From IMG/VR virus record IMGVR_UViG_3300048136_000205, positions 2,287-66,286 of that record: DNA of 64,000 nt, one strand, 5' to 3'. Position 1 is the first letter of the stretch; every line of letters begins with the position of its first letter. Source of the stretch: a virus. The position numbers were made by a program, and so were the translations under genes. Under the pieces are notes generated by a model, which was not told the DNA's origin, did no database searches, and saw only the letters and a program-made list of their open reading frames with translations. This document shows positions 12,124 to 25,506 of this stretch, piece after piece.

Positions 12124-12211
12124 GGTGGGCTGGCTGAGTGGTCGAAAGCGGCGGTCTTGAAAACCGTTGAACCGAGAGGTTCCGTAGGTTCGAATCCTAC
12201 GCCCACCGCCA
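12124..12211 (+). tRNA. tRNA-Ser (anticodon TGA)
   Basis: Long variable arm, GCGGT-CTTGAAA-ACCGT, G73, CCA. Confidence 0.96.
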
Positions 12212-12217
12212 TTTTTG

Positions 12218-12225
12218 TATAAATA
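12218..12225 (+). promoter_or_regulatory. T4-type late promoter
   Basis: TATAAATA. Confidence 0.8.
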
Positions 12226-12256: not shown

Positions 12257-12937
12257 ATGAAATCTTTCAAAATATTCTTAGACGAAGGTGTCAACGATCC
12301 AGCAATCTTCAAGGCGATCTTCCTTGCAGGTGGACCGGGATCTGGTAAGTCATTCATCGTCGGCAAAACTGGTTTGACCTCTATGGGTTATAAGGTCGTC
12401 AACTCTGACGATGCATTCGAAGCTGCCATGAAGAAGGCCGGTATGGAGATGGACCCAGAGAACATCTTCTCGGTGAAGGGTCAGGAAATCCGTGGTAAGG
12501 CAAAGGCACTTACAGGTAAACGACAGGCACGTTACATCGAAGGTCGTTTAGGTCTAGTCATTGATGGTACAGGTAAAGACCCAGACAAGATTGTGACTCA
12601 AGCAAGACAACTAATCAAGTTGGGTTATGATGTCGCAATGGTTTTTGTGAACACTGATCTTGACACTGCGATCAAACGTGATGCCGCTCGTAAGAGAACT
12701 ATCGGTGAAGTAGAAGCAACTAAGTATTGGAAAGAAGTGCAACGCAATATCGGTCGTTACCAACAGTTGTTTGGTAAGAACAATTTCCTAGTAGTCGATA
12801 ACTCAGAAGGTAAGGACTACCAAGCAGAGACCCTACGTGCATACCGTGATGCGACAAAATTCACTAACAAGACACCAGACAATCCGAAAGCAAAAAAGTG
12901 GATTGCGGACGAAAAAGCAAAAGCAAAAAGGTCTTGA
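12257..12937 (+). CDS. P-loop kinase (zeta toxin/AAA_33/PNK-kinase-like) with capsid-targeting-like N-terminus
   Basis: GGPGSGKS, VNSDD, LVIDGT, RxxxR lid; N-terminus MKSFKIFLDE. Confidence 0.85.
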   Translation: MKSFKIFLDEGVNDPAIFKAIFLAGGPGSGKSFIVGKTGLTSMGYKVVNSDDAFEAAMKKAGMEMDPENIFSVKGQEIRGKAKALTGKRQARYIEGRLGLVIDGTGKDPDKIVTQARQLIKLGYDVAMVFVNTDLDTAIKRDAARKRTIGEVEATKYWKEVQRNIGRYQQLFGKNNFLVVDNSEGKDYQAETLRAYRDATKFTNKTPDNPKAKKWIADEKAKAKRS

Positions 12938-12962
12938 CACACCCCTCATAATATAGTATAAT
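12934..12962 (+). promoter_or_regulatory. Sigma70-like early promoter
   Basis: TTGACA-N17-TATAAT. Confidence 0.8.
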
Positions 12963-13006: not shown

Positions 13007-14425
13007 ATGCAACGTCTACTAACAGTAGCAGTAACCAGTGCACTTATCAGTGCATGTTCCGGTGGTGGCACTGACGCCCCATCTTCCGTCGTGGCAGACC
13101 CCGTCACAACACCCCCAACCGTAACCCCTGTTGATCCAGCAGTCGAGGCACGTGACAATCTACTCACGTTACTTGACTCTACGTCACCGACAGGTACTTA
13201 CGAGGCATACATCCTACCCGCAAGTGATGACTTCGACAACATCCCGCAAGATCCCAGCAATGAGATCACCGCAGAGAAGGTCGCATTAGGCAAGTTGATT
13301 TATCACGAGACAGGAATCACGGAAGGTGACATCGAATCTAGTGAAGGTACTTTCTCGTGTGCGTCATGTCACAATGCACAGAACGGATTCAAGTCTGGTA
13401 TTCGTCAGGGTATCGGTGAAGGTGGTGTCGGTTTTGATCATCGCATGATCGCTGAAGGTATTAACCCTGAAGACATCGATGTACAACCTGTTGCAACACC
13501 CACTGTACTCAACACGGCATTCCAAGAAGTGATGTTGTGGAATGGTCAGTTAGGTAATGTGATTGCGGGTAATGTCAATGTTGGTATTGATCCCGATCGT
13601 CACTTCACAGAAGGTACTCCGAAAGAAGCAAACCTACGCAACTTTGCTGGTCTAGAGACACAAGCAGTTGCGGGTCTAGGTGTGCATCGTCAGGGGGACA
13701 CAGATGATTCTATCCTGCGCACTAACGAAACTTATCGTGAGATGTTTGAAGCTGCGTACGGTGTCGCAGAACCCGACGATATGTTAGAGGCAACTGCACT
13801 GGCAATTGCCGCATACGAACGCACGATTCTTGCAAACCAAGCACCCTTCCAAGCATACTTGAAAGGTGACGAAACTGCGATGACTGAATCTGAAGTCTCT
13901 GGTGCAGAAGTGTTCTTTGGTAAGGGTAACTGTTATGCGTGTCATAACGGACCTGCGTTGTCATCTCCCGTTGGTGCGATGGCAGACGAAGTGTTTATGA
14001 CTGTCGGTTTCCACGATTTAGATATCTGGGAAGAAACAGTCGGTGAAGTCAACGATGCGACTAGAGAGGGTCGTGGTGGATTCACTGGTGATGAGATGGA
14101 ACGATTTGCATTTAAAGTTCCACCACTTTATAATCTTATAGATACTACTGTATTCGGTCACGGTGCGTCATTCTCTAGTGTAGAGGATGTCGTACGATAC
14201 AAGGTGGATGCGGTTCCACAACACCCACAAGTGGAAACGTATAACCTTGACTATCGGTTCACTCCGTTAGACTTGACCGAAGATGAGATCACAAATCTTG
14301 TTGCTTTCCTTGAGAACAGTTTGTATGATCCAGAGTTGATGCGATATGTGCCAGAGTCGTTACCAAGTGGCAACTGTCCTGTCAACAATGATGAAGTGTC
14401 ACGCCAAGAACTTGGGTGTGACTAA
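13007..14425 (+). CDS. Di-heme cytochrome c peroxidase (CCP/MauG family) lipoprotein
   Basis: Lipobox LISAC; LGKLIYHE; CASCH and CYACH heme motifs; TPTVLN, LWNG, FKVPPLYN, FGHGA. Confidence 0.9.
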   Translation: MQRLLTVAVTSALISACSGGGTDAPSSVVADPVTTPPTVTPVDPAVEARDNLLTLLDSTSPTGTYEAYILPASDDFDNIPQDPSNEITAEKVALGKLIYHETGITEGDIESSEGTFSCASCHNAQNGFKSGIRQGIGEGGVGFDHRMIAEGINPEDIDVQPVATPTVLNTAFQEVMLWNGQLGNVIAGNVNVGIDPDRHFTEGTPKEANLRNFAGLETQAVAGLGVHRQGDTDDSILRTNETYREMFEAAYGVAEPDDMLEATALAIAAYERTILANQAPFQAYLKGDETAMTESEVSGAEVFFGKGNCYACHNGPALSSPVGAMADEVFMTVGFHDLDIWEETVGEVNDATREGRGGFTGDEMERFAFKVPPLYNLIDTTVFGHGASFSSVEDVVRYKVDAVPQHPQVETYNLDYRFTPLDLTEDEITNLVAFLENSLYDPELMRYVPESLPSGNCPVNNDEVSRQELGCD

Positions 14426-14444: not shown

Positions 14445-14520
14445 GGGGCGGTAGCTCAGTAGGGAGAGCGTCTGGTTTGCATCCAGAAGGTCGTGGGTTC
14501 GATTCCCTCTCGCTCCACCA
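14445..14520 (+). tRNA. tRNA-Ala (TGC)
   Basis: G3:U70 identity pair, TCTGG-TTTGCAT-CCAGA, CCA. Confidence 0.95.
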
Positions 14521-14725: not shown

Positions 14726-15385
14726 ATGTTTGAACATGTACCTGTGAATTTATTGGAGATGAACACTGTCACTGAAAGCAGTGGTCGTCATTATCAAACC
14801 CCTGAAGGTGCTAGTCTGCCCTCTATCACGACAGTGTTGTCTATACTGTCTCGTGATTCAATTGCCGCATGGAGAAAACGAGTCGGTAATGAAGAGGCAA
14901 ATCGCATCTCTCATCGTGCTTCGTCTCGTGGTACTAGAGTCCATGAGATTATAGAGAAGTACATTAACAATGAAGAGAATTTTAGAGATGGATATACTCC
15001 AGATATTATCAGTAGCTTTGCTGATCTTAAGCCCATTCTTGATACTCGTATTGGCAGAGTTTATGCACAAGAGGCCCCTCTCTATTCGACGCATTTGGGA
15101 GTTGCTGGTCGCGTCGATTGTGTTGCTGAGTTTGACGGTAGGGTCTCTATTATTGATTTTAAAACTTCAATGAAACCAAAACGATTGGATTGGATCAAAA
15201 ATTACTTTATGCAGGAGTCGGCATATGCTATAATGTGGGAAGAACGAACTGGGCAACCCATCACACAATTAGTAACCATTATTTCGGTAGATAATCATGA
15301 ACCACAAATCTTCATTGAACATAGAGACAATTGGGTCCGACCTTTACGAGAGACCATACAACAATACAATGCCGAACAACTCTGA
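14726..15385 (+). CDS. PD-(D/E)XK exonuclease (Cas4/RecB-like phage exonuclease)
   Basis: PSITTVL, RGTRVH, AGRVDC, IIDFKTS, Q..AYA. Confidence 0.9.
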   Translation: MFEHVPVNLLEMNTVTESSGRHYQTPEGASLPSITTVLSILSRDSIAAWRKRVGNEEANRISHRASSRGTRVHEIIEKYINNEENFRDGYTPDIISSFADLKPILDTRIGRVYAQEAPLYSTHLGVAGRVDCVAEFDGRVSIIDFKTSMKPKRLDWIKNYFMQESAYAIMWEERTGQPITQLVTIISVDNHEPQIFIEHRDNWVRPLRETIQQYNAEQL

Positions 15386-16637
15386 TATAGATCAGATAAT
15401 TCACGAAGCATCTCAGAACGAATACAATATACCAATCTTCAAGTTTGATGATTGGCAAGCTCTTCAAAAGCAATTTGCGTTTGGTGATGAGAGACATCCT
15501 GGTTTCAACACCATTTTCCCCGCAATCCGTGATTATATCAACACGCATAAACCACCGATTCCGATCAAGAGACCTACCACTGAAGAAATGGTAAAGGCAT
15601 TCAATGGTCTGTCCGCATCTGATACTAACAAAGCAATACAAACGGACTTTGAGAAAGGGTCTGTCCGTAATAAGTTTGATGAGGTCGTTGACGTTGAGTA
15701 TATGGTTGCGGCATCTCATGTGTGGAATAATGTCAGTAATCATTTCCATTGCGACAATCGTTACACGTGTGGATGGCACTCCAAGAGATCTAATGCAGAG
15801 ATATGGGAAGATCCCATGAGTAAGGACTTCAGGTCTCTGATTATGTATTTCTGGAGAACGTATAAAAATGCAAACTATGATATTGATGAAGACAAGTATC
15901 GTGGTGCATTCCGACTTGCTGGATACGTAGCAACTCAATTCAAACCACTTGTTGCTAAAACAATCTATGAGAAGCACAATGCCGCACGAGTTGTAGACAT
16001 TTCTTGTGGATGGGGTGACCGTCTTGCTGGATTCTATACCTCATCATGCACCGAAGACTTCTTAGGTTGTGACCCCAACCCACAGTCGTATGAGATCTAC
16101 AAACAGCAGTGTCTTGCCTATGAAGATCTTCTACAGTCTCCCTTGTTCCCTGTCGATGTCACTTTCGAAGATCATGGTGATTGGTTTGAGGTGAAGGGAA
16201 ACAAACGGGTACGCATCTATAACTCACCGGCCGAAGATATGGACTGGGATAGCATCGTTGAAGATCGATACGATCTCATGTTCACGTCTCCACCATATTT
16301 CGGAATTGAACGATATGCTGCAGGACAAGACGGAGAAGAGAATCAGTCTTGGAAACGGTATGGTGAATATGAGATGTGGAGAGAATCTTTTTACTTCCCA
16401 GTACTTGACAGTCTGCTAACCTTCTGTGATACTGTCCTCGTCAATATAGTTGACCCTGTAATCAAGAACAGACGATACAGGTTAGAGGATGATATGAGAG
16501 AAAGGTACGACATTCCTAGAATGTATGGCATGAAGATGAGCAGACGGCCGTCAGGTGTAAAGGATCAACAGCACGGCATCGTCGATAACATGAAACTCAA
16601 CTTTGTGGAACCTATCTATGAAATATCATATAAATAG
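15369..16637 (+). CDS. DNA amino-methyltransferase (m4C/m6A type)
   Basis: VDISCGWGDRL SAM motif, GCDPN, catalytic FTSPPYF. Confidence 0.85.
   Translation: MPNNSDIDQIIHEASQNEYNIPIFKFDDWQALQKQFAFGDERHPGFNTIFPAIRDYINTHKPPIPIKRPTTEEMVKAFNGLSASDTNKAIQTDFEKGSVRNKFDEVVDVEYMVAASHVWNNVSNHFHCDNRYTCGWHSKRSNAEIWEDPMSKDFRSLIMYFWRTYKNANYDIDEDKYRGAFRLAGYVATQFKPLVAKTIYEKHNAARVVDISCGWGDRLAGFYTSSCTEDFLGCDPNPQSYEIYKQQCLAYEDLLQSPLFPVDVTFEDHGDWFEVKGNKRVRIYNSPAEDMDWDSIVEDRYDLMFTSPPYFGIERYAAGQDGEENQSWKRYGEYEMWRESFYFPVLDSLLTFCDTVLVNIVDPVIKNRRYRLEDDMRERYDIPRMYGMKMSRRPSGVKDQQHGIVDNMKLNFVEPIYEISYK
16629..16636 (+). promoter_or_regulatory. T4-type late promoter
   Basis: TATAAATA. Confidence 0.8.
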
Positions 16638-16663: not shown

Positions 16664-18103
16664 ATGCAAAAAAAATTTAGGCAATTTATATCTGAAGGAT
16701 ATGATTTTGGTGTTAAGGACGAAAAGGATCTTGACGGGTTCGATGCGGCTATCGGAAATGACAAAGCACTTAAATTATTCAACCATCTCAAGAAAGAATA
16801 CCCTAACGTAGAATATCCACTTGCACTCAATCGTGGTACGGGGGGTGTTAAGGTTCGAATCAAAGCATTCGATTTGGATCAATACAAAAAAGACAACTTT
16901 GATAAGAATCCACCAGCACGGATGCTTGACTTGGGTCAAGGGTCTATCAATTCATCGGGTGGTGATATCAAGGGAGATGAATGGGAAGTTGTGATCTGTG
17001 TATGCTATAACATGCGATCAAAGGGAGTTGATCTAGAGAAAGCAAAGGAACTTGCTGGAGTCACCGGATCATATAAGAGCAAGATGGACGGAGCACTTGA
17101 AACCGGATTTCAACTTGTTGACAGTGCATTCCGAAGTCCTACCGGAGTCATGGAGCACTTCGGATCAGGTTCGACTAATCTAACCGATGCTTGGGACAAG
17201 TACTTCATTAATACGACAGGCAAGTCTGCACCATCACCTACACGTACACCTAAGACCGATATGTACATCGGTGACCAAAGAATATCCTTGAAAAAGGCAG
17301 GTGGGTCGCAGTTAATGTCTGGTGGTGCGGCAGAGTCTCTGGCAACACTGGCATTTGTTTGGGAAGCACTACCGGATCGAATGAAGACTGCTGAGTTCGA
17401 GAAGACTTGGAGAACACTAGAGGGTGACATCGAAACCAAGTTCACTAAGATTAAATTGCAGAAAGGTCAAAGCACTACTGACATCAAGAGAGACATCAAG
17501 GCCGGTATAAAAAACGAGATCACGAAAGCAGTGGGAGAAACCATTGCAAGTCATACCGGAATGCAAGACGCAGTCCGATCTATTTTCGAGAGCACTGAAG
17601 CAAAGAAGGCACTCGTTAAAGAGTCGATGACCGGACAGAACAAGTTCGATGACCAAAAGGCAGTTGCGTCTCACATTATGGTGTTTGATCCGGATACAGG
17701 CAAGGCATCATACAAACCGATTGACGACAAGTTAATTTCTGTTTATGCTAAAAACGTCAACTTCCAGATCAACTTTAAGAAAGCAGGATCAAGTTCTACA
17801 CCGTACTCCAACATGCGAGTGGGTGTAGGCAAAGGTGCTGACATGCTAAGTGACTCTGTGATGGCAGAATACGATCAACTGGTCACTGAGGCACTAGACG
17901 AAGAAATCCTAGAGTCCAACGTATTACATGAAGGATTAATGGGACGAATCGGAAGAGGTATCAAGAGAGTGTTCTCTTCGGTCGTTAAGAAAATTTGGGC
18001 AAAGGTCAAACGTATCATCTCTAAGAGTTTTAGTGCACTGTCAAGATTGACGGGCATGAGACCTAGAATGAAGAACGATCCTAAAATCACTTGGAGACTG
18101 TAA
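16664..18103 (+). CDS. Putative PD-(D/E)XK endonuclease-like protein with capsid-targeting-like N-terminus
   Basis: GDEWE ... TPKTD ... RISLKK; N-terminus MQKKFRQFISE; cationic amphipathic C-tail. Confidence 0.65.
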   Translation: MQKKFRQFISEGYDFGVKDEKDLDGFDAAIGNDKALKLFNHLKKEYPNVEYPLALNRGTGGVKVRIKAFDLDQYKKDNFDKNPPARMLDLGQGSINSSGGDIKGDEWEVVICVCYNMRSKGVDLEKAKELAGVTGSYKSKMDGALETGFQLVDSAFRSPTGVMEHFGSGSTNLTDAWDKYFINTTGKSAPSPTRTPKTDMYIGDQRISLKKAGGSQLMSGGAAESLATLAFVWEALPDRMKTAEFEKTWRTLEGDIETKFTKIKLQKGQSTTDIKRDIKAGIKNEITKAVGETIASHTGMQDAVRSIFESTEAKKALVKESMTGQNKFDDQKAVASHIMVFDPDTGKASYKPIDDKLISVYAKNVNFQINFKKAGSSSTPYSNMRVGVGKGADMLSDSVMAEYDQLVTEALDEEILESNVLHEGLMGRIGRGIKRVFSSVVKKIWAKVKRIISKSFSALSRLTGMRPRMKNDPKITWRL

Positions 18104-19320
18104 TGGACTTCGCAGACTTCATCACAGAACAAAAGAACACTCACATGACTCACATCGAGGACAAGGTTCTCTATGGTGGAGTTGATGGAACCCGTGAAGC
18201 AATCAATGCATTGCGTGGTCTGCGTGACATGTTGGCAGGTAAAAGCACTGGTAATGTATCGGTTAAGTGGGACGGTGCTCCTGCTATCTTCTGTGGTAAA
18301 GACCCACGTGACGGACAGTTCTTCGTTGCGAAGAAAGGTATCTTCAACAAGAACCCAAAGGTCTACAAGACTGACGCAGACATCGACGCAGACACGTCGG
18401 GTGATCTGAATGCTAAACTCAAGGATGCATTGAAATATCTACCAGAGTTAGGCATCAAGGGTGTCGTCCAAGGTGACTTCCTGTTCAGTCGTGCAGACCT
18501 AGATGGTAAAAAGATCGACGGTAAGAAGTATGTCGTCTTTCACCCAAACACAATTGCCTATGCAGTACCGTGGGAACAGGCCGCAGACTTACGTGCGGCA
18601 AAAATCGGTATCGTATGGCACACGACCTACACCGGAGATTCTTTTGAAAACATGAAGGCATCATACGGTGTGGATGTATCTCAGTTCAGACGTTCTCGAA
18701 ACGTGTGGTCACAGGACGCAATGCTTCGTGATCTTACAAAGGCAACCATGTCAGAAAGAGAGACCAACGAGGTCAATAGCATCCTCACACAGATCGGTCG
18801 TCTGTTCAATCAAACCGCATCAACCACACTCAAGGCAGTTGCAGATAACTCTAAGTTTGCTGGTGCGATCGAGACGTATAACAACTCCTATGTCCGTAAG
18901 GGAGCATTGGTCCCGAATTCGAAAAAGCACGTCGCAGGACTTATAGCACACCGTCAGGCATACTATAAAAAAGAGATAGATAGTAAGAAGTCCCAACGTG
19001 GAAAAGATACGTGGATTCAGAAATATGCGGAAGAAATGAAGTTCTTCTCCACAGATAATAAGGCAAATTTGGAAAAAATGTTTGAGTTACAACGTCTCAT
19101 CGTTCTTGCAAAATTAAAGCTTATAAATAGTTTGGACAAACTTAAGTCAATTGACACCTTCGTCAAAACCACTGACGGTTACAAGGTAACGGGTGAGGAA
19201 GGATACGTGGCAATTGACACACTTGGTGGTGATGCGGTGAAACTTGTTGACCGTATGGAATTTTCATACAACAACTTTTCATCTGATATATTAAAGGGGT
19301 GGGACTCACCTCGTAGATAA
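18103..19320 (+). CDS. ATP-dependent ligase-like nucleotidyltransferase (DUF6267-like)
   Basis: Motif I SVKWDG, QGD, motif IV EGYV, motif V VKLVDR; N-terminus MDFADFITE. Confidence 0.7.
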   Translation: MDFADFITEQKNTHMTHIEDKVLYGGVDGTREAINALRGLRDMLAGKSTGNVSVKWDGAPAIFCGKDPRDGQFFVAKKGIFNKNPKVYKTDADIDADTSGDLNAKLKDALKYLPELGIKGVVQGDFLFSRADLDGKKIDGKKYVVFHPNTIAYAVPWEQAADLRAAKIGIVWHTTYTGDSFENMKASYGVDVSQFRRSRNVWSQDAMLRDLTKATMSERETNEVNSILTQIGRLFNQTASTTLKAVADNSKFAGAIETYNNSYVRKGALVPNSKKHVAGLIAHRQAYYKKEIDSKKSQRGKDTWIQKYAEEMKFFSTDNKANLEKMFELQRLIVLAKLKLINSLDKLKSIDTFVKTTDGYKVTGEEGYVAIDTLGGDAVKLVDRMEFSYNNFSSDILKGWDSPRR

Positions 19321-19351
19321 TATGGGATAAACCAATAAGAGGTTAACAGCA

Positions 19352-19723
19352 ATGCTGTCGTTTATTAATTTTATTTCTGAAGCACTCGACGCAACACAAC
19401 GTCGAAAACTTGCTCAGAGAATGAGAAAAAATAAATCAAAGATTAAAATGGCACGTAAACGTGCCGAAAGAAAATTTGCAGACATGGATACTCTTAAGAA
19501 AAGAGCACGTCGTCAGGCACGGAAGAACATGGCTGCAAAACTTGTGAAGGACATGCCAAAGGACGAACTCTCTGTTGCCCGTAAGAAGGGACTAGAGAAG
19601 AGACTGTCCAGTCCTCAAATACAAGCACGTATTGATCGTCAGTCGAGAAAACTCATTAAGACCGTTCGTAAGCAAGAAATCGAACGTAAGAGAAATCGCA
19701 ACAAGAGTGACGACAAGAAGTGA
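19352..19723 (+). CDS. Highly basic internal head protein-like
   Basis: MLSFINFISE followed by a Lys/Arg-rich body; late promoter TATAAATA at 19122. Confidence 0.75.
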   Translation: MLSFINFISEALDATQRRKLAQRMRKNKSKIKMARKRAERKFADMDTLKKRARRQARKNMAAKLVKDMPKDELSVARKKGLEKRLSSPQIQARIDRQSRKLIKTVRKQEIERKRNRNKSDDKK

Positions 19724-21060
19724 TAAAGAATTTTAGTCAGTATCTAGTTGAAGAGGAACGTGAGGTTTACTTCACGTTTGGTCGTATGAATCCGCCTACC
19801 GTAGGTCACGGTAAGGTTATGGACTCACTTGCAGTCAAGTCGGGAAAGTCCGATTACAAAGTCTTTGTATCACAGTCCCAAGACGCAAAAAAGAATCCTC
19901 TATCGTATACTGACAAAATAAAGCATACCCGTAAGATGTTTCCGAAACATGCACGGAATATCGTTGTTGATAAGTCGGTAAAGACCGCAATCAACGCAAT
20001 GGTGGTTCTCTATGATCAGGGTTACAGAGCAGTAACGATGGTTGTAGGAGAAGACCGCATTACAGAATTCGAAGTTCTATTGAACAAGTACAATGGACAA
20101 AAGGCAAGACACGGTTTCTACAATTTCAAATCGATCAAGATAGTATCCGCAGGTAAGAGAGATCCGGATGCTGCAGGTGTAGAAGGCATGTCTGCCTCAA
20201 AGCAACGTGAGAATGCATCGAAAAACGACTTCGTCTCATTCTCTCAGGGTGTACCTAAGTCTATGTCAGACAAAGAGACTCGTAAACTCTTTAATGATGT
20301 ACGTAAGGGTATGGGACTCAAAGAAGCATTGGAATTCCGTAATCACCTAGAACTCAAACCCGTATCTGAGACTCGTGAACAGTATGTTGCGGGATCTCTG
20401 TTTGAGGTAGGGGATACAGTAGCCATCAAGGAAAGTGATGAGGTGGCCACTGTATCCGTTCTAGGTGCTAACTACGTTATCGTAGAAACAAACGATGGTA
20501 AGAAAATGCGCAAGTGGTTGGACTCCGTCGAGATTGTCGAGACACAAGATTCGGAGATAAAAGATCGTGAAGGCACACAACCTGCTCGTTACCATGCTGG
20601 ACTGAAGAAGTCTACCAAGGTCAAACGTGATGCACATTTTAAAAAGCACGGTAAAAAGGCAGACGACGATGACTCTGCTTACAAACCTGCACCGGGAGAC
20701 AAGACGGCAAAGACTAAACCATCCAAGTACACCAAGTCGTTCAAGGATATGTACGACGAAGATTGCTGGGATGGGTACAAGCAAGTGGGCATGAAAAAGA
20801 AGGGTGACAAGATGGTACCAGATTGTGTACCAGAAAGCACTGACATCTTAGAGAACTGGGTTACTGATCTAATGAATAAGTTAGATGCTAAATCTGTTCA
20901 TCGTGATAAATATACGAAGGTTGCCAAGCACATCAAGAAAGAACTTGAGAAGTCTGGTGACAAACGTTCACTAGAATACCATGCGGCAAATACCATTCGT
21001 AAGTTTAATCTCGATATGGATACTAAAGCACTTGCAGGTATGATAAGGAAATTAGCATGA
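19720..21060 (+). CDS. HxGH (cytidylyltransferase/NMNAT-like) nucleotidyltransferase with C-terminal appended modules
   Basis: FTFGRMNPPTVGH, KNPL, MVVGEDR, GMSASKQR; N-terminus MIKNFSQYLVE; CWDGYKQVG module. Confidence 0.85.
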   Translation: MIKNFSQYLVEEEREVYFTFGRMNPPTVGHGKVMDSLAVKSGKSDYKVFVSQSQDAKKNPLSYTDKIKHTRKMFPKHARNIVVDKSVKTAINAMVVLYDQGYRAVTMVVGEDRITEFEVLLNKYNGQKARHGFYNFKSIKIVSAGKRDPDAAGVEGMSASKQRENASKNDFVSFSQGVPKSMSDKETRKLFNDVRKGMGLKEALEFRNHLELKPVSETREQYVAGSLFEVGDTVAIKESDEVATVSVLGANYVIVETNDGKKMRKWLDSVEIVETQDSEIKDREGTQPARYHAGLKKSTKVKRDAHFKKHGKKADDDDSAYKPAPGDKTAKTKPSKYTKSFKDMYDEDCWDGYKQVGMKKKGDKMVPDCVPESTDILENWVTDLMNKLDAKSVHRDKYTKVAKHIKKELEKSGDKRSLEYHAANTIRKFNLDMDTKALAGMIRKLA

Positions 21061-21329
21061 TTTCTTTTAAGAATTATCTTGAAGAAAAACGATACTCAAT
21101 GTATGATAGCATTGATCTGGACGAAGGTCCAGACGGTATCGCAGCGAAGGCGAAGAAGTCAGGTATCTCATCGGACACCCTTCGCAAGGTTTATAATAGA
21201 GGTGTTGCGGCATGGAAGACGGGTCATCGGCCAGGAACCACACCGCAACAATGGGGAATGGCAAGGGTTAATGCTTTCATCGTTAAGAAGAAGAAAGGCA
21301 ACCTGAACCACGACAAAGACTTAGCATAA
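21057..21329 (+). CDS. Small basic protein (DUF5824-like) with capsid-targeting-like N-terminus
   Basis: MISFKNYLEE; VYNRGVAAWKTGHRPGTTPQQWGMARVN. Confidence 0.8.
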   Translation: MISFKNYLEEKRYSMYDSIDLDEGPDGIAAKAKKSGISSDTLRKVYNRGVAAWKTGHRPGTTPQQWGMARVNAFIVKKKKGNLNHDKDLA

Positions 21330-21355: not shown

Positions 21356-23251
21356 ATGGCAAATCAAATTTTAGCGGGTGCTGTGTTTCAGGCTGGTCAA
21401 GTAATTGCCGGTGTAGACGCAAACAACCCACCATACGTAGGACCACCAGTAGGTAAATTTATCACAAGAAGCATCAGTGGTGGATATCCTAAAACAATTT
21501 CTTTACGATCTGTAATTGATATCGATGCAGATCCTATTACAACTATCACCAATACTAGCAGTTATTTTGGTACCAGATTTGCATCAGATCCAAATGGAAG
21601 GTACCTCGCAATTGGTGACACTGTGAATAATAAAGTCTTCGTTTATAACACACAAGATTTAGGTGCAGATCCTACAGTAGTTGACTACCCTAGCTCTGGT
21701 TCAGCTGCTGTTCTTTCTATGAACTCTGATAAGTTATTTGTTGGAAAGACTACAATATATGCTTATGATTTATCCGATCTATCTGCGGCACCTACTACAA
21801 TTAGTGCACCTTCATCTGAAGTAGCTGATTATGGATTTGGTTCTGATATTGCATGTAACTCTACTCATTTGTTCATTGGTAGTCAATACGCAAGAATAGA
21901 CCAACAAGGTGGTGTTCAATCATCGGGTGCAGATTCAGAGTCAGGAAAAGTTCATGTGTGGAATATTTCCACAGAACAATATGAAATTGATCTATATGGT
22001 ACAGATGTAGAGTATGGTGATAAATTCGGAAGTGAAATAAAAGTTACCGATACTCACGTTGCTATTGGTGCATATGGTGCGGATACATCGCCAGGATATC
22101 AACCTGAGACCGGAGCAGTATATTTGTTCGATGCACAGGATCTTTCTGCAACTCCAACAAAGTTAACCGGAGGTGGATATGGTGACGAATATGGTAGAAA
22201 TATAGACCTGAATAGCACACACTTAGCAGTAAGTGAAGGTAACTATTCTGGGTACAGTGATACTGGTGCTAGTTTACAAGAAAACGGCAGACTTTTCATA
22301 TATTCATTAACCAACTTGTCGAACCCTACTATAAAAACGGGAAATTTATATTCTGAAAAATATGGAATAAACCCTAATCTTTTCAAAGACGGTTCTGGTC
22401 GAATATCATTCTATAGATCTTTGGCCAACACCGGCGGTCCTACCAAATACTTTGTCTACAACATTAATGATTTAGACACCCCTCTTTGGGAATCTGAGAC
22501 AGAACAACCTGTAATGGAATTACCCGCATACGTTGCACCACTAACATCAGTCGCAGGAACGTCACTACTACTATCTGGTAACAATGCATCTATCCGTGAT
22601 GAGTCGCAGAGTGTTGAGTCTATTTCTGTATTCGGTAATACGACTGTTGCAGACTCTTCGCCATACGGTACTGGTAAGTCGATCTCTTTCGATGGTGATG
22701 GCGACTATATCCGAGCAGACGAAGCATTAGATTCATTCACCTCTACTACAGATCCATTTACAATAGAGTTTTGGATGCGACCAGAACGTTTTAATGACGG
22801 TTCGGCGGTTGATATACCATTCGCAATTAATTCTATATCTACTGGTTCTAATGAGTTGATTCTTGTTGGTAATAATAATGGTGCACCAAGCGGACAAGGG
22901 CAGTATGTAACCCTTTCTGGATCGGGCGCAAACCCTAGTTACTCGCTTGGATTAAATCTACAAGATAATGGACCTTGGTATCACATTGCAATGACATACG
23001 ACGGCACCACATTTAAACTATATGTGGACGGAACCGTTGCGATCAGTCAGAATGTTGCCTTTACTATACCTTTCGCAGATTGTTCTCTGTTGATTGGTGC
23101 GGATGCAGATAGTGCAAACGCTGGATCTCTAGGTAACTACTACAAAGGTGCACTTGCAGATATTCGTATTAGTAAAGAGGTTGCCTACACAGAGAACTTC
23201 ACCGTACCATCTGCATCACTGGGCGATTACTCAGAAAACGAGTTAGACTGA
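21356..23251 (+). CDS. Virion structural/adhesin protein: FG-GAP-like beta-propeller plus LamG/ConA lectin domain
   Basis: Repeats FGS.IA...GA...G.VY; SFDGDGDY, FTIEFW, WYHIAMTYDG..KLYVDG, YKGALADIRISK. Confidence 0.8.
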   Translation: MANQILAGAVFQAGQVIAGVDANNPPYVGPPVGKFITRSISGGYPKTISLRSVIDIDADPITTITNTSSYFGTRFASDPNGRYLAIGDTVNNKVFVYNTQDLGADPTVVDYPSSGSAAVLSMNSDKLFVGKTTIYAYDLSDLSAAPTTISAPSSEVADYGFGSDIACNSTHLFIGSQYARIDQQGGVQSSGADSESGKVHVWNISTEQYEIDLYGTDVEYGDKFGSEIKVTDTHVAIGAYGADTSPGYQPETGAVYLFDAQDLSATPTKLTGGGYGDEYGRNIDLNSTHLAVSEGNYSGYSDTGASLQENGRLFIYSLTNLSNPTIKTGNLYSEKYGINPNLFKDGSGRISFYRSLANTGGPTKYFVYNINDLDTPLWESETEQPVMELPAYVAPLTSVAGTSLLLSGNNASIRDESQSVESISVFGNTTVADSSPYGTGKSISFDGDGDYIRADEALDSFTSTTDPFTIEFWMRPERFNDGSAVDIPFAINSISTGSNELILVGNNNGAPSGQGQYVTLSGSGANPSYSLGLNLQDNGPWYHIAMTYDGTTFKLYVDGTVAISQNVAFTIPFADCSLLIGADADSANAGSLGNYYKGALADIRISKEVAYTENFTVPSASLGDYSENELD

Positions 23252-25188: not shown

Positions 25189-25506
25189 ATGAAAAAATTC
25201 AAGCAATACGTAGAAGAAGGTTGTTGTGAAGCATGTGCGTCTCTTGACGAAGAGTTAGAACTAACCGAAGCAGAGTATCAGGGTAAGACTGTTACCTTGA
25301 ACAAACCTGTGCGTGGTGGTTCTAAGAAGTTCTACGTATACACAAAGAACGAGAAGGGTAATGTCGTGAAGGTTTCATTTGGAGACCCTAATATGGAGAT
25401 TAAGAAAGACAACCCTGCTCGTAGAAAAAGTTTCAGGGCACGTCACAATTGTGCAGACCCTGGCCCGAAGTGGAAAGCACGTTACTGGTCGTGTAAGGCA
25501 TGGTAA
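25189..25506 (+). CDS. Conserved virion-associated protein with capsid-targeting-like N-terminus
   Basis: MKKFKQYVEE; VSFGDPNM...RRKSFRARHNC...ARYWSCKAW. Confidence 0.8.
   Translation: MKKFKQYVEEGCCEACASLDEELELTEAEYQGKTVTLNKPVRGGSKKFYVYTKNEKGNVVKVSFGDPNMEIKKDNPARRKSFRARHNCADPGPKWKARYWSCKAW

Follow-up and report, generated by a model that had tools for sequence, protein, structure and literature searches.

A predicted capsid-targeted cluster with a ligase-like DUF6267 protein and an adenylyltransferase-fold partner in a T4-like marine phage

What would a phage gain from a ligase-like protein encoded next to a nucleotidyltransferase, and why would both begin with a leader resembling the capsid-targeting sequence (CTS) of phage T4? 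The question is raised by the window analysed here, a stretch of 64,000 nucleotides (positions 2,287 to 66,286) of the 66-kb IMG/VR virus record IMGVR_UViG_3300048136_000205, which is 39% complete and comes from a T4-like marine phage of the Kyanoviridae-like kind. A first-pass annotation had singled out three open reading frames (ORFs), namely a ligase-like protein (18103-19320), a nucleotidyltransferase (19720-21060) and a distal P-loop kinase (12257-12937), as a candidate CTS-tagged repair kit, and all three are present at these positions, all on the plus strand. The sole close record for the 3.2-kb query 18103-21329 is phage C48C1 (Kyanoviridae, 156 kb), with 77.7% nucleotide identity over 76% of the query and an identical gene order. 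The explanation we lean towards, with moderate confidence, is that of a late, capsid-targeted cargo cluster, in which a ligase-like protein of the DUF6267 family and an adenylyltransferase form a pair that heals and seals ends at the start of infection. Since both proteins start with a T4-type head-loading tag, they are probably injected together with the phage DNA, as judged from the comparisons given below.

The leader follows the pattern aromatic-x-x-aromatic-[ILV]-x-E, located two to five residues after the start codon, and starts seven plus-strand ORFs, all between 12.2 and 25.5 kb of the window. These code for the P-loop kinase (12257-12937, 226 amino acids (aa), leader MKSFKIFLDE), a 479-aa protein which is the first of the operon (16664-18103, MQKKFRQFISE; ORF call, PHROG), the DUF6267 protein (18103-19320, 405 aa, MDFADFITE followed by the ligase-like core), a highly basic 123-aa protein resembling a T4 internal protein (19352-19723, MLSFINFISE; ORF call), the adenylyltransferase-fold protein (19720-21060, 446 aa, GTG start, (V/M)IKNFSQYLVE), a 90-aa protein (21057-21329, MISFKNYLEE) and a Cys-rich 105-aa protein conserved near the module (25189-25506, MKKFKQYVEE; pattern scan, synteny). 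When searched for within residues 2-16, [FYW]xx[FYW][ILV]xE is found in 6 of the 235 ORFs of at least 60 aa, as compared with 0.26 on average and at most 2 in 1000 rounds of within-protein shuffling; six rather than seven are counted because the ORF at 25189 was missed by the ORF caller used. The "CTS tag" named in the first-pass annotation is therefore a real, non-random feature.

The T4 internal proteins IPII and IPIII start with MKTYQEFIAE, and residues 4 and 7 of the T4 CTS are reported to set targeting while residues 8 and 10 set processing (PMC9026906). The kinase leader matches that of IPII/IPIII exactly at positions 4, 7, 8 and 10, and the other leaders of the window are shifted relative to the T4 positions by -1 to +1 residue. 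The window set thus carries the leader with mapped determinants that is typical of T4 internal proteins: as in IPI, IPII, IPIII and Alt, whose CTS is processed by gp21, it is about 10 residues long, with aromatic residues at 4 and 7, an aliphatic residue at 8 and Glu at 10. The likeness extends to the presence of a small, very basic protein in the cluster, to its location beside tRNA genes, as for the T4 ip genes (the window has seven tRNA genes, at 4.7-14.5 kb), and to the nearest complete relative, C48C1, which has a gp21-type protease (E 1.2e-40) and an FLTE sequence conserved in gp23. We take this FLTE to be the place at which gp23 is cleaved in T4. Unlike the T4 internal proteins, which are small DNA-binding or anti-restriction proteins, the window cargo consists mostly of mid-sized predicted enzymes, and for the window phage both packaging and cleavage are predicted.

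The leader is kept in 46 of 60 transferase homologues, 41 of 76 DUF6267 homologues and 15 of 21 copies of the DUF5824 C-half found in the 90-aa protein, as opposed to 0 of 6 and 0 of 2 for the control genes, the neighbouring exonuclease and peroxidase. Among 102 diverse DUF6267 proteins, 39 possess a strict and 10 a loose leader, 38 have other short extensions and 15 have none, the latter starting at most four residues before the conserved KNxHxxHxED element of the core, where cleavage would leave the mature end. In the complete C48C1 genome the pattern is present at eight places, six of which are gene starts, all within 57.3-68.4 kb.

The operon starting at 16664 is preceded, 35 nucleotides upstream of its ATG, by the motif TATAAATA (16629-16636, plus strand; motif scan), which we take to be the T4 late-promoter core and which is likely the late promoter of the operon; a further copy of this T4-type late-promoter-like motif lies 39 nucleotides upstream of the kinase ATG (12218-12225, plus strand; motif scan). 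The whole window contains 11 copies, 10 of them on the plus strand, against 2.12 expected, and none of 100 shuffles reaches 11. Copies just 5' of ORF starts are located at 12218, 14428, 16629, 23812, 25534, 37339, 42036, 46521 and 61324, which would fit T4-type late promoters spread over the whole fragment. Scans for terminators and sigma-70 promoters between 11.5 and 26.5 kb left the ends of the operon undefined.

Homologues of the transferase have been found in purified cyanophage virions. The virion proteome of S-SZBM1 is reported to comprise 30 proteins, including the "cytidylyltransferase" S-SZBM1_140 (2 peptides, exponentially modified protein abundance index (emPAI) 0.26), which matches the window transferase (E 1.1e-42) and starts with MRFRQFIIE. 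Its neighbour S-SZBM1_141 is a DUF6267 homologue (E 2.1e-69) which is leaderless and starts at the core. S-CREM2 gp154, also reported as a virion protein, starts with MKNFSSFLTE and is located behind a TATAAATA motif. According to Sullivan et al. 2010 (PMC3037559), the "citidylyltransferase" T4-GC190 is a cyanophage core gene whose product was present in S-SM1 virions and not in those of S-PM2. The correspondence with the window transferase was made by annotation and N-terminal sequence for gp154 and by annotation for T4-GC190, with no alignment. An "NMNAT" is reported in the virions of S-SCSM1 and S-CBWM1, and it was mentioned in the S-SCSM1 paper that "NMNAT-like" proteins recur in virion proteomes; in the cyanophage papers, as far as their available parts go, the labels "cytidylyltransferase" and "NMNAT" are given without an assay. 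Packaging of the transferase homologue has thus already been published. The literature search, which brought up only the T4 review PMC9026906 and a paper on phage P1, found no published link of the cyanophage transferase to a T4-type leader, and the passages dealing with T4-GC190, S-SZBM1_140 and gp154 connect the protein neither with such a targeting leader nor with DUF6267 or the kinase.

Gene linkage was assessed in the best 80 IMG/VR loci encoding DUF6267, 54 of which have at least 2.5 kb of downstream sequence. In all 54 the transferase gene lies downstream of DUF6267 on the same strand, within 1.5 kb in 51 of them; a small basic protein is encoded between the two in 40 and the DUF5824 C-half is present in 41. 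As the loci examined belong to related phages, synteny by itself is weak evidence for a module. The link between DUF6267 and the transferase is confirmed by independent fusions, borne out by Pfam, namely DUF6267 with the transferase and DUF5824 in P0124 and DUF6267 with a second TxGH/HxGH domain in P0155 and P0231. Fusions of the kinase with DUF6267 (P0121, L035) and of the transferase with the kinase (L054, L062, L063) also exist. In pelagiphage HTVC008M the gene for gp41 is followed by that for a counterpart of the 479-aa protein and then by DUF6267, a gene for a basic protein and the kinase gene (E 1.9e-57), after which come the transferase-DUF5824 gene and a gene homologous to that at 25189. 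Since the kinase sits inside this cluster, the kinase that stands apart in the window is a member of this group too. The co-occurrence proposed in the first-pass annotation as a check on a single module holds, with the transferase 3' of DUF6267 at all 54 loci with enough downstream sequence, the fusions, and the HTVC008M kinase placed between both genes. The three genes form one real module, of which the kinase is a facultative third member. DUF6267 is not always paired, since Vibrio phage 2.275.O (349 kb) encodes a leaderless homologue at 109775-110950 with no transferase within 6 kb. The predicted complex of DUF6267 with the transferase domain scored under the mark in both of two runs made without controls. 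As a separate observation, the stretch after DUF6267 in the Vibrio phage has four consecutive ORFs, each of about 110 aa, two of which share a nearly identical N-terminus.

The product of 18103-19320 (identified by Pfam, alignment and model) is a full-length member of Pfam family DUF6267 (E 6.7e-105). The family is large: at least 8000 candidates scored among 90% clusters all match it, 2569 representative clusters remain at 50% identity, and by tblastn it occurs in 467 phage records, almost exclusively from Synechococcus and Prochlorococcus myoviruses, with HTVC008M and a few others besides. No mention of the name DUF6267 was found in the literature search. The ligase-type motifs quoted for this protein in the first-pass annotation are all there, namely VSVKWDG (with K55), QGD (123-125), EGYV (366-369) and VKLVDR (379-384). 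An alignment with 102 relatives, 34-58% identical to the window protein, has 16 invariant columns, including K55, D57 and G58 of KxDG, D125, E366-G367 and K380, with N149/Y153 as further invariant motif candidates; the numbering of the later candidates as motifs III, IIIa, IV and V is our assumption. The motif I KxDG with a candidate nucleophilic lysine, characteristic of covalent nucleotidyltransferases, is therefore present, its K, D and G being invariant in all 102. In the AlphaFold2 model (predicted local distance difference test (pLDDT) 94.1, predicted template-modelling score (pTM) 0.91) an N-terminal helix is followed by a beta-rich part (51-205) with KWDG on a strand-turn-strand. The two beta-rich halves are separated by a helical insert of some 130 residues (218-345), and the second of them (351-381) bears EGYVAI and VKLV. 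After the motif V candidate the protein has only 25 residues left, with one helix, and the C-terminal OB domain with motif VI typical of ATP-dependent DNA ligases of the gp30 type is lacking from the model. With no OB domain, the modelled DUF6267 protein is closer in architecture to RNA ligases than to DNA ligases.

Among the closest known systems are the OB-less ATP-dependent RNA ligases, i.e. the T4 Rnl1 family (PF09511) and T4 Rnl2, to which DUF6267 corresponds in the order of KxDG and of its candidates for motif III (acidic), motif IV (EGYVA) and motif V (Lys), the stretches EGYVAV..KI of T4 Rnl1 and EGYVAI..KL of DUF6267 being alike. Like the model, these enzymes have helical accessory parts instead of an OB fold, and the kinase-DUF6267 fusions recall the Pnk/ligase arrangements among the BFVD matches. 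Unlike RNA ligases, DUF6267 has no significant sequence or profile similarity to them, matches them in PDB Foldseek at E 0.25 or worse, has its nucleotidyltransferase core split by the helical insert and carries the KNxHxxHxED element, for which no alignable counterpart was seen. The best PDB Foldseek match is 2hiv (E 0.25, probability 0.44), and 13 of the 47 matches listed are ATP-dependent DNA ligases or a capping enzyme, these having the top probabilities (0.13-0.44). A Foldseek search of BFVD gave 21 matches at E <= 0.001, which are unnamed or have "cytidyltransferase"-type names and most of which are taken to be DUF6267 family members, fused forms included. The first matches with other names are the RNA ligases of Atu_ph07 (E 5.9e-3, probability 0.98) and phiQ1 (E 0.076, probability 0.91), followed by capping enzymes and Pnk/ligase proteins. 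Pfam RNA_lig_T4_1 (PF09511) is weakly matched, below the cut-off, by 4 of 102 DUF6267 members (best E 6.2e-4). Comparisons by hhalign made use of the whole family alignment, its N part, its C part and a version without the helical insert; none was significant against T4 RnlA, RnlB or gp30 taken singly, and EGYVAI..KL of DUF6267 falls on EGYVAV..KI of Rnl1 with a non-significant E of 0.12-0.13. No curated ligase family profile matches the window protein at E <= 0.1, nor is there a PF01068 match; the ESM Atlas returned only the family's own clusters and the NCBIfam search nothing above noise. A match to eS8 (0.0026) in the PDB sequence searches, falling in the Lys/Glu-rich helical insert, was taken as compositional. 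The ligase fold proposed for 18103-19320 in the first-pass annotation thus retains weak structural support, with no significant match in PDB Foldseek or to the Rnl1 profile. DUF6267 is not a demonstrated member of any ligase family, and on the present evidence we consider it fairly probable that it is a covalent nucleotidyltransferase of the ligase type.

A side observation concerns P0250, a metagenome cluster representative of 693 aa, in which DUF6267 is joined to a C-terminal domain of about 290 residues unrecognised by Pfam. This domain contains GSSSGDIDLAID, which by eye resembles a signature of polymerase-beta-type nucleotidyltransferases.

The second member of the pair, encoded at 19720-21060 (Pfam, PHROG, alignment, model), consists of a TxGH nucleotidyltransferase domain (approximately residues 12-205), an SH3-like barrel (approximately 231-272), which matches the C-terminal domain of RSV integrase, the N-half of DUF5824 (288-347) and a C-terminal helical part. 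FGRMNPPTVGH (20-30) and MSAS (157-160), quoted in the first-pass annotation, are present, and the signature is to be read as T27-V-G-H30, not as the HxGH given there. In an alignment of 53 homologues T27, G29, H30, S158, K161 and R163 are invariant, so that the protein has both marks of the (T/H)xGH family, the signature and a second SxxxR-type motif (MSASKQR). Its Pfam PF01467 score of 20.1 bits is below the gathering cut-off of 21 bits, which the fused homologue P0124 passes with 30.3 bits, and PHROG "cytidyltransferase" families match it with E-values of 1.4e-71 and 8.6e-68. The model has a pLDDT of 83.8, with block means of 90-97 for residues 11-140 and 75-97 for residues 141-200, and gives 52 PDB matches in Foldseek at E <= 1e-3, including NadM (3e-5) and NadD, with template-modelling (TM) scores of 0.55-0.68 on the target (0.67 for PPAT and 0.68 for an archaeal NMNAT). 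The modelled domain is thus firmly assigned to the NMNAT/PPAT-type Rossmann-like nucleotidyltransferase fold, within which Foldseek does not separate NMNAT from PPAT. With NMNAT (NadM, NadD, archaeal NMNAT) and CoaD (PPAT) it shares the Rossmann-like fold, the (T/H)xGH signature and the SxxxR-type second motif, and it differs from them in bearing the leader, the SH3-like domain and the DUF5824 modules and in its sub-threshold PF01467 score.

DUF5824 is split in the window, its N-half belonging to the transferase and its C-half to the 90-aa protein encoded at 21057-21329 (Pfam, PHROG), while in L034, L043, L044, HTVC008M and other relatives it is part of a single protein. This is not a sequencing frameshift, since 15 of the 21 separately encoded copies of the C-half likewise start with a leader.

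The kinase (12257-12937; Pfam, PHROG, PDB sequence search) possesses the P-loop GGPGSGKS and matches Zeta_toxin (9.7e-10) and AAA_33 (2.3e-9) in Pfam; its match to the PHROG "polynucleotide kinase" is weak (6.5e-6), and its best PDB sequence matches are adenylate kinases at E 0.011 and above. Of the earlier description as a PNK-kinase or zeta-like P-loop protein, the P-loop and the zeta-type match stand and the PNK label does not, the protein being only a generic P-loop kinase. Its location among tRNA genes is as described, between tRNA-Ser (12124-12211) and tRNA-Ala (14445-14520).

For the ligase chemistry, the packaging of the DUF6267 protein and of the kinase, and all the substrates, the following scheme is what we infer. 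The cluster would be expressed late, each cargo protein having a leader of about 10 residues with the CTS determinants of T4; the cargo would be loaded into the prohead core, the leader would be trimmed after Glu by a gp21-type protease, and the proteins would be ejected with the DNA into the next host. There DUF6267, most likely a covalent nucleotidyltransferase akin to polynucleotide ligases but highly diverged from them, with Lys55 of KWDG as its putative nucleophile, would act in an obligate pair with the (T/H)xGH adenylyltransferase, the P-loop kinase being facultative. A nucleic acid, either tRNA/RNA or nicked DNA, would be end-healed and sealed at the very start of infection, and the production or renewal of an adenylylated donor or of a cofactor such as NAD+ would fall to the adenylyltransferase, whether the kinase takes part or not. 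The job of the module may be RNA repair, sealing of DNA nicks or cofactor synthesis. The interpretation given in the first-pass annotation is on the whole supported in part, and among the roles it offered the evidence favours none of RNA repair, NAD rebuilding and nucleotidylation of a target.

Several results weigh against this scheme. With regard to packaging, neither head genes nor a gp21-type protease were detected in the 66-kb, 39%-complete record, and neither of two leaderless proteins, the DUF6267 homologue S-SZBM1_141 and the DUF6267-like S-CREM2 gp87, is among the virion proteins listed in the available parts of the respective reports. Since leaderless homologues are absent from these virion lists, the conserved function of DUF6267 cannot depend on injection. 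The pre-packaged module of the first-pass annotation is in this respect borne out by the leader, the late motif, the gp21 of C48C1 and the transferase homologues in virions, and undercut by the undetected leaderless DUF6267 homologues. With regard to sealing, the DUF6267 model had no PDB Foldseek match at E <= 0.001, the matches having TM scores of 0.15-0.19 and root-mean-square deviations of 9-10 A; hhalign against a 45-sequence T4 Rnl1 profile gave a non-significant E of 0.12-0.35, with a sensible alignment limited to the motif IV-V stretch; T4 ligases were not enriched near the top when hidden Markov models of the family were run against all 438 T4 ORFs, with the exception of RnlA, ranked second for the C-terminal 61 residues (E 0.27); and no ligase was found in PDB sequence searches with the protein and the family profile. 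With regard to healing, the kinase is found in only 9 of the 80 DUF6267 loci and has no Pfam match to a phosphatase family, so that it does not have the composition of the kinase-phosphatase T4 Pnkp; to our knowledge, moreover, a (T/H)xGH transferase has no role in classical healing-and-sealing RNA repair.

The strongest alternative, which we nevertheless regard as unlikely, is that DUF6267 is the missing DNA ligase, replacing gp30 on Okazaki fragments and nicks in the infected cell, with the adenylyltransferase supplying the adenylate donor and the leader being a secondary, lineage-specific add-on. None of the four canonical ligase families (PF01068, PF01653, PF09414, PF09511) was detected in the three complete Kyanoviridae genomes C48C1, S-SZBM1 and HTVC008M, three of them being found in the T4 control, and DUF6267 lies within the replication module, flanked by gp41 and primase in S-SZBM1 and preceded by DNA polymerase, UvsX and gp41 in HTVC008M. 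The occurrence in 467 phage records, nearly all of cyanomyoviruses, the 15 leaderless representatives out of 102, the leaderless homologues undetected in virions and the DNA ligases at the top of the PDB Foldseek matches would also suit a replication ligase. Such a role is at odds with the model, which has no OB domain, with the BFVD neighbours, which are RNA and not DNA ligases, and with the leader kept in most homologues; the operon is headed by a T4-type late-promoter motif, whereas replication genes are expected to be early or middle, and the host NAD-dependent ligase could serve replication.

Two further explanations concern the partner and the leader. The module might rebuild a dinucleotide cofactor, NAD+ or similar, against an NAD-depleting defence, the kinase and transferase acting like NadR (riboside kinase and NMNAT) or CoA synthase (PPAT and kinase) and DUF6267 being an accessory and not a polynucleotide ligase. 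The fold of the transferase, closest to NadM, NadD, archaeal NMNAT and PPAT, its three fusions with the kinase, the adenylate kinases as best PDB sequence matches of the latter and the published proposal that virion "NMNAT-like" proteins influence host NAD levels (PMC9602691) all point this way. We consider it quite improbable, given that the obligate partner is DUF6267 (54/54) and the kinase occurs at only 9 of 80 loci, that Foldseek cannot tell NMNAT from PPAT, that no Nampt-like or PRPP-synthetase-like partner is present among the ten ORFs scanned (12.2-23.3 kb) and that the injected enzymes, numbering a few tens of molecules, would need to outpace the depleting enzyme. The shared N-terminal motif, for its part, could be an interaction helix or a translational or regulatory element and not a packaging tag, the proteins acting only in the producing cell and the presence of the transferase in virion proteomes being due to contamination or some other cause. 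Cleavage and packaging in the window phage are predictions only, the transferase is of low abundance in S-SZBM1 (the 2 peptides mentioned above, emPAI 0.26) and it was not seen in S-PM2 virions according to the available part of that study (PMC3037559). Against this, the leader has exactly the same spacing as the T4 CTS mapped by experiment, closes with [IL]xE as does the conserved maturation site of gp23, occurs as a module on proteins of unrelated fold and is accompanied by a late-promoter motif upstream, and the homologue is reported in five different cyanophage virion preparations; we regard this explanation as the least probable of those considered.

Turning to the neighbouring genes, the stop codon of the 479-aa protein overlaps the ATG of DUF6267 by one base, and homologues of this protein are encoded upstream of DUF6267 in L002, L003, L035 and HTVC008M. 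The N-terminal 480 residues of P0179 were rejected as a further homologue (BLASTP E 2.0); for the 479-aa protein the ESM Atlas gave only unnamed viral clusters, and a lead of 0.83 to RE_HaeIII was below the useful range. Between the kinase and tRNA-Ala there is an unusual auxiliary gene (13007-14425, plus strand) coding for a di-haem cytochrome c peroxidase/MauG-like protein (PF03150, E 8.4e-24), whose N-terminus resembles a lipoprotein signal (…LISACSGG), which is preceded by a perfect TTGACA-17-TATAAT promoter-like site (12934-12962) and which has homologues in C48C1 and in loci L003, L006 and L030. Upstream of the operon a 446-aa ORF (15297-16637, plus strand) contains a TSPPY motif, typical of N6-adenine/N4-cytosine DNA methyltransferases, and has a weak match to a PHROG DNA methyltransferase (E 8.5e-3); its true start is probably located further downstream, because the ORF overlaps the end of a PD-(D/E)XK exonuclease gene (14726-15385). 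Directly 3' of the module lies the gene for a leaderless 631-aa protein (21356-23251, plus strand), possibly a structural or adhesin-like component of the virion, in which an FG-GAP repeat and a Laminin_G_3/concanavalin-like domain (E 1.3e-19) were recognised.

Cargo packaged in the T4 style is of a known kind, and DUF6267 is a divergent ligase-like family. DUF6267 and the transferase are carried by nearly all ocean cyanomyoviruses and are also present in a pelagimyovirus, and with 467 phage records and 2569 clusters DUF6267 is among the most abundant uncharacterised genes of marine phages. Were DUF6267 a ligase, it would fill a long-noted gap, that of phages with no recognisable ligase. The boldest version, that marine T4-like phages, having no canonical ligase, inject a self-sufficient joining system in which DUF6267 is a new ligase class charged by a donor made in place by its obligate NMNAT/PPAT-like partner and a kinase, is in our view unlikely; if true, it would make early repair independent of host NAD+/ATP and resistant to tRNA-cleaving or NAD-depleting defences. 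If the leader acts as it does in T4, it would explain why a "metabolic" enzyme recurs in virion proteomes, and the proteins that an entire phage family injects could be predicted with a simple sequence rule.

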